Below, one piece after another: positions 1 through 53,289 of a stretch of 64,000 nucleotides of DNA. The position numbers and the translations under genes were made by a program. The DNA comes from a virus. Taxonomy: Duplodnaviria; Heunggongvirae; Uroviricota; Caudoviricetes. Position 1 is the stretch's first letter; every line of letters begins with the position of its first letter. Below the pieces are notes generated by a model, which was not told the origin of the DNA, did no database searches, and saw nothing but the letters and a program-made list of their open reading frames with translations. Location: IMG/VR virus record IMGVR_UViG_2740892427_000001. One strand, written 5' to 3'.

Positions 1-236
1 TGACTCATTTCGCCAATCATCTGCTCCGGTGTGATACCAAGTTGCTGTGCTTTCAGCATGATCGGCGTACCGTGGGCATCGTCGGCACAGATGAAATTAA
101 CCTCGTGGCCGCGCATTCGCTGGTAACGAACCCAGACATCAGCCTGGATGTGCTCCAGCATATGGCCGAGGTGGATTGAGCCGTTAGCGTACGGCAGCGC
201 GCACGTCACCAGAATTTTCTTCGCGACTTGGGTCAT
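1..236 (-). CDS. metG: methionyl-tRNA synthetase, N-terminal part (gene continues beyond window start)
   Basis: Minus-strand ATG at 236..234; translation reads [60 protein letters not shown], the HIGH-motif N-terminus of MetG; divergent from mrp as in enterobacterial chromosomes. Confidence 0.85.
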
Positions 237-393: not shown

Positions 394-1494
394 ATGAGCG
401 AGTCCAAATCGCCGGATGCCCTGAGAGCAATGGTAGCCGGTACGCTGGCTAATTTTCAGCACCCAACCCTGAAACACAACCTGACTACGCTTAAAGCGTT
501 ACACCATGTTGCGTTGATGGATGACACACTGCATGTCGAACTAATCATGCCTTTCGTGTGGAATAAGCCTTTTGAAGACCTGAAAGAGCAATGTAGTGGT
601 GATCTGCTCCGTATCACTGGCGCAAAGGCTATTGACTGGAAGCTGTCGTACAACATTGCCACGCTTAAGCGCGTCAAAAACCAACCAGGCATTAATGGTG
701 TTAAGAATATTATCGCCGTAAGCTCAGGCAAGGGCGGTGTAGGCAAATCGTCCACAGCAGTAAACTTGGCACTGGCTTTGGCTGCTGAAGGTGCGAAAGT
801 TGGTATTTTGGATGCCGATATCTATGGTCCATCAATTCCAACCATGCTGGGCGCGGAAAACCAACGTCCAACCTCACCGGACGGTACTCACATGGCACCT
901 ATCATGTCTCATGGCCTGGCAACCAACTCTATTGGTTATCTGGTCACCGACGACAATGCAATGGTGTGGCGTGGACCGATGGCCAGCAAGGCGCTGATGC
1001 AGATGTTGCAGGAAACACTGTGGCCTGATCTGGACTATCTCGTTCTCGATATGCCGCCGGGCACTGGTGATATTCAATTGACGCTGGCGCAGAACATTCC
1101 TGTAACTGGTGCGGTTGTGGTAACTACGCCGCAAGACATCGCGCTGATCGATGCGAAGAAAGGCATTGTGATGTTCGAAAAAGTCGAAGTGCCGGTACTA
1201 GGTATCGTCGAAAACATGAGTGTGCATATTTGCAGTAACTGCGGTCATCACGAGCCAATTTTTGGCACCGGTGGCGCACAGAAACTGGCCGAGAAATACA
1301 ACACGCAGTTGTTAGGCCAAATGCCACTTCATATCTCTCTTCGTGAAGATCTGGATAACGGAACACCAACCGTTATTAGTCGTCCAGATAGCGAATTTAC
1401 GGCTATTTATCGTGACCTCGCAGATCGCGTTGCTGCCCAAATGTATTGGCAAGGTGAAGTAATACCTGGCGAAATCGCATTCCGCGCAGTGTGA
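394..1494 (+). CDS. apbC: Fe-S cluster carrier P-loop ATPase Mrp/ApbC
   Basis: 366 aa ORF; deviant Walker A SGKGGVGKS; CxxC near C-terminus; N-terminus close to E. coli Mrp. Confidence 0.9.
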   Translation: MSESKSPDALRAMVAGTLANFQHPTLKHNLTTLKALHHVALMDDTLHVELIMPFVWNKPFEDLKEQCSGDLLRITGAKAIDWKLSYNIATLKRVKNQPGINGVKNIIAVSSGKGGVGKSSTAVNLALALAAEGAKVGILDADIYGPSIPTMLGAENQRPTSPDGTHMAPIMSHGLATNSIGYLVTDDNAMVWRGPMASKALMQMLQETLWPDLDYLVLDMPPGTGDIQLTLAQNIPVTGAVVVTTPQDIALIDAKKGIVMFEKVEVPVLGIVENMSVHICSNCGHHEPIFGTGGAQKLAEKYNTQLLGQMPLHISLREDLDNGTPTVISRPDSEFTAIYRDLADRVAAQMYWQGEVIPGEIAFRAV

Positions 1495-1531: not shown

Positions 1532-1921
1532 CTACATCACAGGACAATCATCAAACTCGCCACTTCTTGCGTCGTTGATAATGTGAGTGATCACACCAAA
1601 CACGGCATTGCTGCCCGTGCATCCATCATCATCCTTTGGCAATGCTTCCTTCTTACCAGTTCTTAAATCCTCCAGATGCTGACGTGGATACTTCCGGTAT
1701 CTTTTTACGCGATATTCCCCATCCAGAGCACATACAAGAAGAGATCCATCAACAGGAGTCAGTGAGGAATCGACCACCAGCAATGCACCCTGCAATATTC
1801 CCTCACGATGATGACTATCAGCCGCCCTCATGAAGTAGGTCGCTGAAGGATGTCTAATTATCTGCTGATCAAGAGAAATACGGCTCTCAGCATAATCCGC
1901 CGCAGGAGAAGGGAAGCCCAT
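1532..1921 (-). CDS. UmuD'/HumD-like SOS mutagenesis protein (S24 peptidase fold), naturally lacking the UmuD N-terminal arm
   Basis: MGFPSPAADY...SATYF..DS..VKR closely parallels UmuD/MucA from the RecA-mediated cleavage site onward; in-frame stop two codons upstream of the ATG, so no longer N-terminus is possible. Confidence 0.75.
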   Translation of the reverse strand: MGFPSPAADYAESRISLDQQIIRHPSATYFMRAADSHHREGILQGALLVVDSSLTPVDGSLLVCALDGEYRVKRYRKYPRQHLEDLRTGKKEALPKDDDGCTGSNAVFGVITHIINDARSGEFDDCPVM

Positions 1922-2717: not shown

Positions 2718-3350
2718 CTACATACTTTCTGATCTAATTGAGTTGTTCACTGCTCTGGCAATTTTCTCCCGCAATTGCTGCGTTCCGTGGTACTGAACCG
2801 CAATATCCCGCAACTCATTCACCAGTTCTCTAATCTGGTGATCTTTAAGCTCATTATTTGGGTGATGGGCAACAACTCTGGTTAATTCACCCTTGTCTTT
2901 TGCTCTTACGTATGCAGCTCTTGTGCATTCGACCCATGTATTACCGCCTACATTAACTTCGTAGATTAGGCTGGACTTATCTGTCAATTCGGAACAAATA
3001 CGGGCCGTGGTCTGGCAACTAGAGCATTCGCAGTTATCGCGGAAACCGTGATCTACCGGTCGAGAAAGAGGTTTAACTTTTTCATCCAACTTCATCACAG
3101 CATCGTGATAAGCGTTCCAGCCGTCATCTTTACCAAGTTGATAAATCTCTGAAGGCTCCATGTAGTCTATATCGCAACCTTCTTCATCTGATCTATCTGG
3201 TCGTTTCCCTGGTAATCGTTCATAAAAACGATTTCTGTCTCGACGTTCGGCTCTCAGTGCTAACGCAAGAAGTTGCTCAAGCGAGGTATTTGCACCAGCA
3301 ATAATTTCATTGAGAATATCTTCTGTGAGATCTTTCGCTACCGTGCTCAT
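2718..3350 (-). CDS. hypothetical protein with Cys cluster (CECSSC)
   Basis: 210 aa ORF, start overlaps upstream gene stop (operon); no confident family assignment. Confidence 0.5.
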   Translation of the reverse strand: MSTVAKDLTEDILNEIIAGANTSLEQLLALALRAERRDRNRFYERLPGKRPDRSDEEGCDIDYMEPSEIYQLGKDDGWNAYHDAVMKLDEKVKPLSRPVDHGFRDNCECSSCQTTARICSELTDKSSLIYEVNVGGNTWVECTRAAYVRAKDKGELTRVVAHHPNNELKDHQIRELVNELRDIAVQYHGTQQLREKIARAVNNSIRSESM

Positions 3351-3730: not shown

Positions 3731-4380
3731 TCGTCATCCTCATCCGAGTCATCCTCATCACAGGATGAGAGTAGTGGGTTAGTCATTCGCCCTACTTGAG
3801 TGGCGTAGCCACGCCGACAGAGATTGCGCAGCACACTGTATATTTCGAACATCTCGGTTCGTTCATCGCCAACATCAAGCTCAGATGCTATAGCGTGGCA
3901 TTCAGTCGCGAGAGCCGATATTTTCTGAAATAACTCTGCATTATTCACTGTTCGACTCCTGCGGCGTTCTGGTAGTGGCATCCAGTGTGTGACATTGCTA
4001 ATCAGACCATATTCATTAGTTTGAGGATGGTTGCCGTTATCGTCTCCGTATTTAAGACTCTCCATAAAGCCATAATGCCTATCACCATTAACGCTCACAA
4101 AGCCGTAATAAGCAGGTATAACGCCGATCTCACACGTAACCAGTAAAGGAAAACTAGTTCTCCAATTTAGCTCGCCAATTACAGGCATTCGCTCACTACA
4201 GCTTATCCAACCATCCTTAGATGCGGCTGTATTGGCATAGGCCTTACGGTGCTTCTGTAGCTCTGCTGCAATCGCTCTCACGACTTCAACTGGTGCCCTT
4301 GCAGCAAACTCAATGTTGGTGATCAGCTCATTAAGATATTTCTCGCTTGGGTAGCATTTCTTATTGGTAAAGGTTGTCAT
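3727..4380 (-). CDS. hypothetical phage protein (DUF551-like), acidic C-terminal tail
   Basis: 217 aa ORF; W..C.ERMP and WMPLPE motifs reminiscent of DUF551; ends in DEDDSDEDDE. Confidence 0.5.
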   Translation of the reverse strand: MTTFTNKKCYPSEKYLNELITNIEFAARAPVEVVRAIAAELQKHRKAYANTAASKDGWISCSERMPVIGELNWRTSFPLLVTCEIGVIPAYYGFVSVNGDRHYGFMESLKYGDDNGNHPQTNEYGLISNVTHWMPLPERRRSRTVNNAELFQKISALATECHAIASELDVGDERTEMFEIYSVLRNLCRRGYATQVGRMTNPLLSSCDEDDSDEDDE

Positions 4381-4568
4381 TAGGCAGCTCTCTCAACAAC
4401 AAGCAATTCGTCGTAGTCATAATCAGTTTCGGAACCATCCGTACCGAACAGAGTCACTTTGTCACCGTCCATCCAGAAAGATTTAACCGCACATTGTTGA
4501 CCTTTAGATGTTATGACCACATCACCAGGTATTACGTCCTCAGCGCGAACTTCTATAGTTCTCATCAT
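4380..4568 (-). CDS. small hypothetical protein (~62 aa)
   Basis: ATGATG start overlapping the stop of the upstream gene (ATGA); the longer ORF in the track (to 4697) runs antisense-frame through the upstream gene. Confidence 0.4.
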
Positions 4569-4888
4569 GCTGATCCCTCTTTCTCTCCCCGGATAATTCT
4601 GTTGCACACATCCACGCACTCGTCGCAGATGAAAACGGCGTCCCCAGCAATTAACTTTTTGACGGCGTGCTGGGATTTGTTGCAGAAGCTGCAACAAAGT
4701 GTTCGCCTGACTGATAAGGATGGAGCGCCAGATGTCAGCCGCTCCATATCGTTCTTGCGACGCAATATCACACGGCTGAACTCAACCAGTTTCTCCGGGG
4801 ATATATCCTCCTCCGTAGCGAGCGTCTCTAGTCGTTCGAGTATGTTGAAGGCTTTTTCTTGGGTAATAGCAGAGTGCGATGTGGTCAT
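4565..4888 (-). CDS. small protein with C-terminal ClpX-type zinc-binding (ZB) domain
   Basis: C-terminus [38 protein letters not shown] parallels the ClpX N-terminal C4 zinc-binding domain (CSFCGKSQ..ICDECV..CN.II). Confidence 0.55.
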
Positions 4889-5286
4889 TTTCTTTCACCT
4901 TCAATGTTCGTGGCGCTGGCAAGATTGTCCTTGCGAAGAAGAGCGGCTATGCGCTTACTTCCATCCGAGATAACGCCCTCGTAATACTCACGCTGCTCGT
5001 TGAGTTTTGATTTTGCCAACTCCAGTTGTTTTGTTAGTTCCGCAATACGGCAAACATCGTTGATACGCGTTTCCTCTAATGCGTTGATCTCATCCAGTAG
5101 TGCCAGCACGGTTTCTGGTCCGGCCAGAAATTTGAAGGCGTTGAGGGCATCAATATCAACACCGCTATCTTTAAGTTCCTGTTCGCTTATCAGATCATCA
5201 TCAACTGGCAACATTAACAGGCGTTCCATTGCCGGAATTGCACGCTCTGCCGCCTCACGCAGTGCCTGATAGTCAATCTTGCTCAC
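4885..5286 (-). CDS. Ead/Ea22-like coiled-coil protein
   Basis: [15 protein letters not shown]-terminus typical of lambdoid Ea22-like proteins (from memory). Confidence 0.5.
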
Positions 5287-7067: not shown

Positions 7068-8753
7068 TCATTTAACGCGTTTGAAAACGTATACGCTGAC
7101 TGTGATCCCTGTGTCTTCAAACTCGTTGGTAAACGACTTCCCTCTGGCATAAACGTAATTATCCATCGTCATCCAGTCCAGTATTGGCGCAGTGCCCGGC
7201 AATACTGCTACAAGACGCCCGCCGACTTTCAGATGCCCCAGCGCAGCCAGCGTGTGCTCTCTATGACGACCAAGCGAGTACGGCGGGTTCATAACGATTT
7301 TGTCGAACTGATAACCTACGTTGTCCTCAGACCACTTTATGAAGTCGCAGCAAATCGTGTTCGTATACCCTTTTCCGCGCAGGATATCAGCGAAGAGAGG
7401 TGCGATTTCTATGCAGGTAACATCTTCCAGATCGGCGTTAATATAGGCCAGAAGATCCCCACGTCCGGCTTGAGGCTCCAACAACTTCTCACCAGGCTTC
7501 AATTCAGTGGCTCTGGCAACGTACTCAGCAATCAAGCGTGGGGTAGGGTAGAACTGGTGTGATTTTGTATCCGGTATTAAACCGGTAGCCACAATCGTAT
7601 TTAGCGTATGGCCGATCTCATACGGGAACTGCCAGTGCTTTTTCTCCTGCACGCCGCCAATGAAGCTCAGTGTGCGCTCAAGCTCTTCCACCTGCGACTT
7701 CTGGAGAGCTGAATCAGAGAAGTACCATACGCCTTTGTCTTTGCTAAATCGCCCGTCACGAAGCGCAGTGCGAACCGGCACGGAGATCGTCTTCTGGATT
7801 AACCCGAACTGCTTTGGTGCCCGTGTTTTTGGCGCAGTTCGGCATGGCGCGGGAATTGCAGCAGGCATACTGTAAGCCAGCACCTCATTCAACTTCCAGG
7901 CCACGTCAGGATGTATTTCAAAGTGAACGTTGCCGTTCTTGAACATCTTCACGCGCATCAGATTTCCATCGACGTTCATCCAGTCACCGGTCTGGCAGTC
8001 GTTTGCCCGATACGCAGCTGATAGCACCTCAGCAGTGCGGTTGATGGTAATAAATTCTTTGTGCGCGAAGAAATGAAGCAAGACACGCAGATCGTCGATA
8101 TAGTCCTCTTTGCGATAGTTCACACTAACGCTGTCCCGCCAGAAATCAGAAATGCAGTCAGCGATTATCAGACGTTCGCTGAAACCGTTTGTCTTATTTG
8201 TCTTGTGCGCAGGACTCAGCGCCTTAAACAAGCCATACACGCGCTCAGAGAGATATTTGTGCCTGTCATTCAGCAAATTAAGCATCGTGGGTATGACCGT
8301 TTCTGCTTTGAACTCCGGTACACCAACGAACTCTTTAACCTTCATCTGGTAGCCGGTTCTGTCAGTTTTGATGACTTCCTGTTTGCCCTCTATAAACTGC
8401 TCGCGCCACTCATCTCGACGGGAAGCTGGCATGATCAGCAAAACGTTAGTCATGTCCGTGACCTTCCTCCAGTACTCGGCCCAAATATTCTGTTTCACCC
8501 ATTCCAGATCGACTTTATCCAACCAACCTCGATTTAAACGCGAGCGATCTTCATCTGGTCGATGGTTTAGTCTCAGCAGGCGATTAATCATGTTGTGGCG
8601 TTCGTCGCCATAAACGAAGTCGTGTACCTGATACATGAAGGCGATCTCTTTCTCGCACTCGGCCACAATTTCGTGGATGACGTTCATTTCCTGCCGATAG
8701 TCGATAGCAGTGTTTGAGTTGGCATCGTCGATGATGGAAAGGGCTGTATTCAT
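7068..8753 (-). CDS. DNA N6-adenine methyltransferase fused to a large uncharacterized N-terminal domain
   Basis: C-terminal third carries FYPTP, EPQAGRGDL (AdoMet-binding) and NPPY motifs; N-terminal ~380 aa unassigned. Confidence 0.65.
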   Translation of the reverse strand: MNTALSIIDDANSNTAIDYRQEMNVIHEIVAECEKEIAFMYQVHDFVYGDERHNMINRLLRLNHRPDEDRSRLNRGWLDKVDLEWVKQNIWAEYWRKVTDMTNVLLIMPASRRDEWREQFIEGKQEVIKTDRTGYQMKVKEFVGVPEFKAETVIPTMLNLLNDRHKYLSERVYGLFKALSPAHKTNKTNGFSERLIIADCISDFWRDSVSVNYRKEDYIDDLRVLLHFFAHKEFITINRTAEVLSAAYRANDCQTGDWMNVDGNLMRVKMFKNGNVHFEIHPDVAWKLNEVLAYSMPAAIPAPCRTAPKTRAPKQFGLIQKTISVPVRTALRDGRFSKDKGVWYFSDSALQKSQVEELERTLSFIGGVQEKKHWQFPYEIGHTLNTIVATGLIPDTKSHQFYPTPRLIAEYVARATELKPGEKLLEPQAGRGDLLAYINADLEDVTCIEIAPLFADILRGKGYTNTICCDFIKWSEDNVGYQFDKIVMNPPYSLGRHREHTLAALGHLKVGGRLVAVLPGTAPILDWMTMDNYVYARGKSFTNEFEDTGITVSVYVFKRVK

Positions 8754-52635: not shown

Positions 52636-52722
52636 TGGCGGAGAGTAATGGAATCGAACCATCATCGCTTGCGCAATGGGACGGTTTTCAAGACCGCTTG
52701 AGCACCATGCTCCCTACTCTCC
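52636..52722 (-). tRNA. tRNA-Ser (anticodon TGA), long variable arm
   Basis: Cloverleaf folded by hand: acceptor GGAGAGT/ACTCTCC, anticodon loop CTTGAAA, T-loop GGTTCGATTCC, 87 nt. Confidence 0.7.
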
Positions 52723-52822
52723 AGCTATTGTGATGGTCGGTGCTGAACTCCGACACAGGGTTGTAGCAAGCCCCGCAAAGCGCGCACTACTGTAGTTGCG
52801 GCACATCAGCCTGTGCATTCAT

Positions 52823-52901
52823 CACAACGGTAAGATCACTACCTTTCGACCAGTCATTGTGCACATGAACGACGATTAACCGTAATGATCTTATCGTTGT
52901 G
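52823..52901 (-). repeat. hairpin-bounded module H2 (terminal inverted repeat CACAACGGTAAGATCA)
   Basis: 79 nt, 16-bp stems with one G-U position. Confidence 0.4.
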
Positions 52902-52952
52902 TTGTGAAGCCAGATGCTTATCTTCTGGTTGCTTCAAAGAGCTGCACTTCCT

Positions 52953-53041
52953 CACAACGGTAAGAGCACTGGTCTGACTCTATCGATTTACGGGCTTGTG
53001 GGTCAGTATCGCCGATTCGCCCAATGCTCTTACCTGTTGTG
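52953..53041 (-). repeat. hairpin-bounded module H3 (terminal inverted repeat CACAACGGTAAGAGCA), abuts tRNA-Thr
   Basis: 89 nt, 16-bp stems with one bulge. Confidence 0.4.
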
Positions 53042-53042
53042 T

Positions 53043-53118
53043 TGGTGCCGGTTAACGGGATCGAACCGCTGACATCCTGCTTACAAGGCAGACGCTCTAC
53101 CAACTGAGCTAAACCGGC
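53043..53118 (-). tRNA. tRNA-Thr (anticodon TGT)
   Basis: Acceptor GCCGGTT/AACCGGC, anticodon loop CTTGTAA, T-loop GGTTCGATCC, 76 nt. Confidence 0.8.
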
Positions 53119-53122
53119 AATT

Positions 53123-53209
53123 TGGTGGGGAGTGATGGAGTCGAACCACCCGAGTCGCAATGACAGTAGATTTACAGTCTACCCCGCTGCCCCTACGGAC
53201 TAACTCCCC
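53123..53209 (-). tRNA. tRNA-Tyr (anticodon GTA), long variable arm
   Basis: Acceptor GGGGAGT/ACTCCCC, anticodon loop CTGTAAA, T-loop GGTTCGACTCC, 87 nt. Confidence 0.75.
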
Positions 53210-53214
53210 TAAAT

Positions 53215-53289
53215 TGGCGATGGTGGGTGGATTCGAACCACCGACCAGTTGGTTAACAGCCAACTGCTCTACCGCTGAGCTACACCATC
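53215..53289 (-). tRNA. tRNA-Asn (anticodon GTT)
   Basis: Acceptor GATGGTG/CACCATC, anticodon loop CTGTTAA, T-loop GGTTCGAATCC, 75 nt. Confidence 0.8.

Follow-up and report, generated by a model that had tools for sequence, protein, structure and literature searches.

Phage T4 encodes PinA, an inhibitor of the host AAA+ protease Lon. For the protease ClpXP, the N-terminal docking domain of ClpX governs the fate of λO, MuA, UmuD and UmuD′, of the stress sigma factor (through RssB) and of FtsZ in division. This domain is a C4-type zinc-binding domain (ZBD) with a hydrophobic pocket at F16 and I46, which is the docking site common to λO, SspB, RssB and trigger factor (PMC7804408). The domain binds UmuD, MuA and λO directly and is required for FtsZ degradation, and an SspB XB peptide that occupies the ClpX site blocks the degradation of λO, of FtsZ and of SspB-dependent substrates (PMC3983244). 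RssB and SspB compete for docking on the ZBD, and a consensus motif, LKxh, has been proposed (PMC7226468); the specificity of the N-domain is tuned by species (PMC5422525). Here we analyse a phage gene whose 107-amino-acid (aa) product ends in a free copy of this ZBD. The gene lies in a 64,000-nucleotide (nt) stretch of the IMG/VR record IMGVR_UViG_2740892427_000001, hereafter called the window, and belongs to the family phrog_6797. Our literature searches returned no paper on this family and no description of a phage inhibitor that mimics the ClpX docking domain.

Domain structure of the phage protein

The open reading frame (ORF) of the gene has an ATG start and a TGA stop; its coordinates and those of all other features are collected in Table 1. 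Residues 1-106 of the product align with positions 1-106 of the 107 positions of the phrog_6797 profile (E=6.5e-58), for which PHROGs gives no function. Near-identical proteins carry the RefSeq name 'ClpX C4-type zinc finger protein', and as a sequence object the family is therefore not new. This existing catalogue entry and name had been missed in the initial annotation of the window. Older GenBank and RefSeq records, among them L003 (5004..5336) and L004 (5001..5321), name the protein 'carboxylate--amine ligase', for which sequence and profile searches gave no support.

Residues 63-100 are a bona fide ClpX-type C4 ZBD, with a similarity that is well past chance. The Pfam family PF06689 (zf-C4_ClpX) matches residues 65-100 through positions 2-38 of its 39-position model with 58.7 bits (E=5.2e-16), the gathering cut-off being 27 bits. 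A phmmer search of the PDB sequences returned the E. coli ClpX ZBD as the best match (2ds5 and 1ovx, E ~1.4e-15), aligned without gaps to residues 62-102. In a model obtained with AlphaFold2 (AF2) from an alignment of 36 sequences, the C-terminal domain reaches pLDDT values of 83-89. Foldseek placed this predicted fold on the solved ClpX ZBDs 2ds5, 2ds6, 2ds8 and 1ovx, with 1.8-2.0 Å root-mean-square deviation (rmsd) over 37 columns, at 73-76% identity and a Foldseek probability of 1.00; for the E. coli ClpX ZBD the values are 76% identity and 1.9 Å. The initial annotation had seen in the last ~40 residues a mimic of the ClpX ZBD, on the basis of a string that lies at residues 65-99, and had proposed a profile search, whose failure would have spoken against it, and a structure prediction as checks. 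Both bear the resemblance out and make the domain a true ZBD of the ClpX type instead of a mere look-alike.

The zinc ligands of the phage protein are spaced CxxC-(18)-CxxC. At C65-C66 (window 4691..4696, - strand) two Cys stand side by side in this allele and in its nearest relatives, which places an extra thiol beside the first zinc ligand; E. coli ClpX and most family members have Tyr-Cys at the equivalent positions. No AAA+ module accompanies the ZBD, as had also been noted initially: the NCBIfam equivalog models of ClpX, TIGR00382 and NF003745, yield 41.4 and 43.5 bits where 370.75 and 359 are required, and are matched through model positions ~4-48 only. The 107-aa protein is itself not a ClpX. 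That it binds zinc, dimerises and binds ligands is inferred from its sequence, as would be any influence on proteolysis.

About half of the protein is a conserved helical N-domain that is always fused to the ZBD and that the initial annotation had overlooked. The AF2 model predicts a hairpin of two helices, which is connected to the ZBD by a flexible linker. The N-terminal ~55 residues contain the conserved motifs ERLExLAxEE and (L/I)RR(K/E)xD in invariant or near-invariant columns. In an exhaustive phmmer search of 1.84 billion representatives, residues 1-60 were found only in fusion with the ZBD or in truncated or frameshifted copies. Two long matches to the N-domain (P0121 and P0128) consist of several separate short stretches each and were set aside as probable coiled-coil-type noise. 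For this domain, nothing above noise came out of a profile search of the PDB sequences or of a Pfam scan at E<=10, and a scan of the GTDB species-representative genomes with the N-domain profile yielded no confirmed locus. The family comprises three subtypes, here called D6/SSU5-type, P88-type and P0122-type, whose N-domains are 39-50% identical; the linker differs between them in length and sequence.

The signature of an SspB-type adaptor was not found in the 107-aa protein, neither as an XB motif nor as an SspB Pfam match. The conserved (L/I)RR(K/E) at residues 42-45 (LRRK) was considered as an XB-like tether and rejected: it is neither LRVVK nor LKxh, it is charged at the small-hydrophobic position, and it lies mid-helix in the model.

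Conservation, selection and spread of the family

The four zinc ligands (C66, C69, C88 and C91) and F68, the equivalent of ClpX F16, are invariant in the family alignments of 26 and 36 sequences. At the position of I98, which corresponds to ClpX I46, there are 13 Ile, 11 Val, one Leu and one Ala. Thus, at the level of sequence the docking pocket is kept, the F16 equivalent being invariant and the I46 equivalent I, V or L in nearly all members. The dimer-core positions (the equivalents of I28, V33, I35, V40, C43 and I47) are likewise invariant or nearly so. Position by position, the conservation of the phage ZBDs follows that of genuine ClpX N-domains with a Spearman coefficient of 0.65 (p=8e-6), where the genuine set consists of N-termini that run into the AAA+ 'YVIGQ' segment and was itself chosen by similarity to the window protein. 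Over a core of ~39 residues the ZBDs of the three subtypes are 74-79% identical to that of E. coli ClpX. For the P88-type (79%) and the P0122-type (77%), E. coli ClpX is the closest of all ClpX compared, the median of the set being 62%. To judge from these sequences, such closeness fits a need to match host partners.

Selection was estimated with pairwise Nei-Gojobori ratios of nonsynonymous to synonymous substitution (dN/dS). The whole gene gave values of 0.2-0.6, the N-domain helices 0.15-0.4 and the ZBD, compared with P88, 0.24-0.37. Dozens of alleles, the most distant at 49% identity, have an intact ORF without frameshifts. The family is under purifying selection and the gene is functional. 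The alleles of the window and of phage D6 (L004) agree throughout codons 8-52 of the N-domain but have 10 differing sites in the ZBD half, which points to a recombination breakpoint at the inter-domain linker.

Matches to the gene were present in 218 of 5426 complete E. coli genomes (about 4%), roughly half of the places being chromosomal. A recent capture from E. coli clpX was considered and discarded, because a DNA-level match to chromosomal clpX would show in essentially every genome, and there was none. Of the 97 matching plasmid records, 82 come from Escherichia, 9 from Salmonella and 5 from Shigella; in the remaining one, from Sphingomonas, the match is on clpX itself. Non-mobilizable plasmids account for 95 of the 97, and the examples listed have the size of phage-plasmids (~87-121 kb). 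In IMG/VR 34 loci were recovered, 19 of them with close full-length relatives.

Altogether, the family is carried by four mutually unrelated backbones of temperate phages in Escherichia, Salmonella and Shigella: SSU5-like, P1/D6-like (D6-type plasmids of ~90 kb), P2-like and lambdoid. The lambdoid chromosomal prophage has the gene downstream of its replication genes, within the nin-like region. The P2-like prophages, which include P88, UTI89 and carriers of the third subtype, all have it in the same slot, downstream of the replication gene gpA and ahead of the ogr/portal genes; what immediately precedes it is either a set of ParM/ParR-like partition genes or one small gene of unknown function. 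An Ead/Ea22-like gene is found upstream in most SSU5-like, D6-like and lambdoid contexts and is absent from the P2-like phages; no neighbour or partner gene is constant across the four backbones.

Possible roles of the protein

We tentatively favour, at somewhat less than an even chance, a role as a dimeric decoy of the ClpX N-domain, which would competitively blunt the N-domain-dependent functions of ClpXP and spare substrates that are recognised at the pore. The protein would be a small dimer composed of the orphan helical hairpin, the flexible linker and a near-faithful copy of the N-terminal ZBD of the host ClpX, expressed from a phage accessory or early operon. The hydrophobic pocket of the soluble decoy would bind the short motifs that tether adaptors to ClpX (the SspB tail, RssB and the UmuD arm), and also N-domain-dependent clients such as λO-type initiators, MuA-type complexes and FtsZ. 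Titration of these ligands would selectively damp N-domain-dependent remodelling and degradation by ClpX(P), and pore-recognised degradation of the ssrA type would be left largely untouched. The N-terminal hairpin might supply extra dimerisation or avidity, or a second specificity. The initial annotation had proposed that a free ZBD might rival ClpX for its adaptors and substrates or bring proteins to ClpXP; both activities are plausible, with indirect evidence from the conserved pocket residues, the ClpX-like pattern of conservation and the purifying selection.

Besides the retained pocket, the position of the gene was counted for the decoy, as it adjoins replication or early genes both in the P2-like phages and in the lambdoid prophage. 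Free ZBD or helix+ZBD ORFs recur in other phages, as described below, which would be expected if a free ZBD were generally useful against ClpX and supports the view that phages profit from one. Moreover, Wojtyra et al. reportedly observed in 2003 that the isolated ZBD, when supplied in trans, disturbs the processing of N-domain-dependent substrates in vitro.

Several points weigh against a decoy. The strong conservation of the N-domain is unexplained, since a pure decoy has no obvious need for it. Stoichiometry is a further concern: ClpX has six N-domains and the ligands are abundant, so that a decoy must be well expressed, and consensus scans of the window, P88 and L013 for a promoter or terminator of its own, the signature of a moron, revealed no promoter-like site adjoining the gene and hence no dedicated promoter. 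Among close alleles the dN/dS of the ZBD is fairly high (0.56-0.88, few sites). Surface positions 23, 31-32 and 45 near the pocket change charge systematically relative to ClpX, and K26 is not invariant; ligand specificity may thus have shifted. Finally, ZBD-like dimers can have roles that are unrelated to ClpX, as in CsfB (PMC5890618).

The wider proposal, that enterobacterial temperate phages and, independently, others use free copies of the ClpX docking domain as mimics that rewire the substrate choice of ClpXP, is possible and in our view rather doubtful at present. If it is correct, this would be the first viral mimic of the substrate and adaptor docking domain of an AAA+ protease, a natural substrate-selective modulator of ClpXP and thereby a new class of phage-host interference, mimicry of a protease docking module. 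Labile replication and regulatory proteins of the phage might be stabilised, as might host σS or UmuD′-type proteins, and a prophage could exclude superinfecting phages that need the ClpX N-domain, for instance Mu-type transposable phages. The slot of the gene in P2-like phages, which is the P2 'TO' moron hotspot, the usual home of exclusion genes, would fit this exclusion variant. The protein might also serve as a tool to separate N-domain-dependent from pore-dependent ClpXP functions in vivo. With the gene present in ~4% of the complete E. coli genomes, and with analogues of it in unrelated phages, the phenomenon would not be a peculiarity of one element.

The changed surface positions and the example of CsfB also bear on a different role, which we regard as a serious alternative with less than an even chance by a clear distance. 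Here the ZBD would be a re-used scaffold, a zinc-stabilised dimerisation or peptide-binding module that acts on a target unrelated to ClpX, e.g. a regulator of the lysis-lysogeny decision, of replication or of transcription. CsfB, a treble-clef dimer resembling ClpX's N-terminal domain (NTD), works as an anti-sigma factor (PMC5890618), environmental proteins join the ZBD to tails of helix-turn-helix (HTH) type or to a second zinc ribbon, and other helix+ZBD ORFs of phages adjoin xis-int or cI/cro modules. Such re-use has difficulty in accounting for the 74-79% identity to E. coli ClpX together with the kept pocket and the matching conservation pattern, which are hard to explain if ClpX ligands are irrelevant. 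Were the target indeed unrelated to ClpX, the protein would be no more than another small accessory protein of a phage that has borrowed a zinc finger.

We consider it unlikely that the protein associates with ClpX itself as a subunit or adaptor, its ZBD pairing with a ClpX N-domain or docking on the ring and its hairpin recruiting a specific phage or host protein to be degraded or remodelled, and so retargeting ClpX, or sterically poisoning the hexamer. The ZBD is an obligate dimerisation module, ClpX N-domains dimerising through the C-terminal helix and β-hairpins (PMC5890618), and heterodimers are sterically plausible with the dimer-core positions kept in the family; the ClpX ZBD dimers are, however, described as very stable, and subunit exchange may be rare. 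A conserved second domain on a flexible linker is the typical layout of a tethering adaptor, and tethering alone suffices for degradation by ClpXP (PMC12373786). The N-domain, on the other hand, has no detectable homology to any binding module, no conserved neighbour gene stands out as candidate cargo, and inspection revealed no XB-like tether motif.

That the gene is non-functional debris, a clpX 5′ fragment captured in a recombination-prone accessory region, would agree with the mosaic surroundings and the pseudogenised neighbours in relatives (partial Ea22-like and DUF551 genes), but is very improbable and effectively refuted by architecture, selection and spread, as the ZBD is at the C-terminus of the ORF and fused to a conserved domain instead of being a truncated 5′ end, dN/dS is well below 1 in intact alleles, the gene junctions are suggestive of translational coupling, and DNA-level similarity to E. 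coli clpX is lacking.

The phage-plasmid, other free ZBDs and known systems

Table 1. Positions of the features discussed. Coordinates refer to the window, except for the last row; s, strand.
Feature	Position	s	Basis
Whole gene, 'ClpX C4-type zinc finger protein' (phrog_6797)	4565..4888, stop codon included	-	ORF list of the window; full-length PHROG match
ClpX-type C4 ZBD, residues 63-100 (E. coli ClpX 11-48, literature numbering)	4589..4702	-	Pfam, PDB sequence matches, Foldseek, conservation profile
Four zinc-ligand codons, span	4616..4693	-	codons read from the sequence
C66 codon	4691-4693	-	sequence
C69 codon	4682-4684	-	sequence
C88 codon	4625-4627	-	sequence
C91 codon	4616-4618	-	sequence
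F68 codon (ClpX F16)	4685-4687	-	sequence
Orphan N-domain, predicted helical hairpin (helix 10-26 and helix 31-52)	4733..4861	-	AF2, pLDDT 78-86
Flexible inter-domain linker, residues 53-62	4703..4732	-	pLDDT below 50 for residues 56-60
Upstream Ead/Ea22-like gene, 133 aa	4885..5286	-	Pfam PF13935, E=1.3e-22
Downstream 61-aa gene, phrog_15283, function unknown	4380..4565	-	PHROG match to residues 45-105 of a longer ORF
Putative Shine-Dalgarno-like AAGGTG, 7 nt before the ATG, within the 3′ end of the Ea22-like gene	4896..4901	-	sequence, prediction only
metG, 5′ end	~1..236	-	window
apbC	394..1494	+	window
129-aa S24-peptidase protein, starting at the equivalent of the UmuD cleavage site (MGFPSPAADY...)	1532..1921	-	sequence
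561-aa protein, 'DUF4942 domain-containing protein' of a related plasmid, with C-terminal methyltransferase domain	7068..8753	-	phrog_6263 'DNA methyltransferase', E=9e-300
Four tRNA genes (Ser-TGA, Thr-TGT, Tyr-GTA, Asn-GTT), carried by the phage-plasmid	52636..53289	-	
Caulobacter phage Cr30, unannotated ORF, <=79 aa from the first possible start, ClpX-type ZBD without AAA+	L005 3022..3261	+	

The gene is part of a tightly packed leftward operon with the order DUF4942-methyltransferase, two unknowns, Eae-like, Ea22-like, ZBD gene, 61-aa gene, DUF551 and two unknowns, in agreement with the operon of small accessory genes that had been described initially. Both junctions of the ZBD gene are ATGA start/stop overlaps: its ATG overlaps the TGA of the Ea22-like gene (ATGA), and its stop codon overlaps the ATG of the 61-aa gene (ATGATGA). 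This suggests translational coupling. In the plasmid pAVS0223-B and in phage PhiR41_1 a 531-bp gene of unknown function (176 aa) lies between the ZBD and the 61-aa genes; it is missing from the window at 4380..4568, and the ATGATGA junction would thus couple the two genes directly. A search of PADLOC-DB returned no defence profile at E<=0.01 for the ZBD protein or its small neighbours. The mad2 profile of PADLOC partially matches the 561-aa protein at the start of the operon (E=8.5e-16), in the methyltransferase domain only.

The window is an internal stretch of a circular SSU5-like E. coli phage-plasmid of ~106-120 kb (about 108 kb). Its first 12 kb are 97-98% identical over 95-100% of their length to circular E. 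coli plasmids of 106-121 kb. In pAVS0223-B, which was inspected in detail, the plasmid itself carries metG, apbC and the S24 peptidase gene, together with all of the small-gene operon, and the protein WP_024187529.1, named 'ClpX C4-type zinc finger protein', is 97% identical to that of the window. Escherichia phage PhiR41_1 carries the same region as the start of the window. Further inside, the stretch at 20-44 kb of the window shares 98.6% identity with phage Cyrano; with Salmonella phage SSU5 the identity is 80%, over 81% of the stretch. A related plasmid has, in addition, repA, dnaE and a ligase gene, as well as genes for tRNAs and the tail and a DUF1778/GNAT toxin-antitoxin pair. The initial placement of the gene at the left end of the element has to be corrected accordingly, since metG and apbC belong to the element. 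The 12-kb query matches all 5426 complete E. coli genomes, mostly in a band of 80-90% identity. These matches are presumably the chromosomal metG-apbC copies, and the plasmid pair would then be an old or foreign capture of a housekeeping locus.

The S24-peptidase protein begins at the point that corresponds to the site of UmuD cleavage and is therefore a pre-processed UmuD′-like protein, as is HumD of P1. Because UmuD and UmuD′ are clients of the ClpX N-domain, it is a candidate beneficiary or client of the ZBD protein. As a general explanation this link was rejected, the ZBD gene also being found in P2-like and lambdoid regions that have no annotated UmuD′-like gene nearby.

Free ZBDs are not confined to phrog_6797. 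A second short-ZBD family in PHROGs is phrog_12435, and among 15 distant IMG/VR matches three are full ClpX genes and most others are ORFs of 56-175 aa without AAA+. Four of these (L037 2839..3153, L038 2857..3156, L040 2911..3153 and L044 ~2836..3129) have a charged N-terminal helix that runs straight into a C-terminal ClpX-type ZBD. They are from high-GC temperate phages; three (L037, L038 and L044) adjoin xis-int and L040 lies just after a cI/cro-like switch. They may represent a second, independent class of phage helix+ZBD proteins that is tied to the lysis-lysogeny machinery. The ORF of Caulobacter phage Cr30 spans two annotated small coding sequences; Cr30 is a lytic T4-like phage, and ClpXP is essential in its host. 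Environmental proteins have the ClpX-type ZBD at the N-terminus, followed by an HTH-like tail (…VSWAQIGAALGISRQSAWERFT; P0037, P0043 and P0063) or by a second CxxC…CxxC zinc ribbon (P0036, P0049 and P0058). These fusions suggest that the ZBD is a widely re-used module outside ClpX.

Compared with these proteins, that of the window shares with phrog_12435, the Cr30 ORF and the IMG/VR ORFs a size within or near their range of 56-175 aa, a ClpX-type ZBD without AAA+ and, for several of them, the order of N-terminal helix and then ZBD. They differ in their unrelated N-terminal parts, in their hosts (high-GC temperate phages and the T4-like Caulobacter phage) and in their neighbourhoods (xis-int and cI/cro). 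The N-terminal ZBD of E. coli ClpX has the same fold, the same C4 ligand spacing, the same F16/I46-equivalent pocket and the same hydrophobic dimer-core positions, whereas in the phage protein the ZBD lacks the AAA+ motor, is C-terminal instead of N-terminal, stands behind an orphan hairpin and carries the charge changes at 23, 31-32 and 45. CsfB (Gin) of Bacillus subtilis, likewise small and stand-alone, has as its basis a dimeric treble-clef zinc domain that resembles the ClpX NTD in structure (PMC5890618). It is, however, only ~20% identical to ClpX, uses another interface and surface and probably has no common ancestry with it, whereas for the phage protein homology to the ClpX ZBD is clear.

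Inhibitors of the T4 PinA type follow the same concept, a phage tuning ATP-dependent proteolysis, but their targets are other proteases, and they do not consist of a copied protease domain. The proposed logic of a decoy is that of the anti-adaptors IraD, IraM and IraP and of the SspB XB competitor, in which docking is blocked and not the protease, so that stabilisation is substrate-selective (PMC7226468, PMC4428439, PMC3983244). None of these is related in sequence to the phage protein, for which Pfam gives zf-C4_ClpX only. RssB is the target of the anti-adaptors and the XB peptide sits on ClpX, whereas the phage protein would mimic the ClpX docking domain itself and titrate its ligands.

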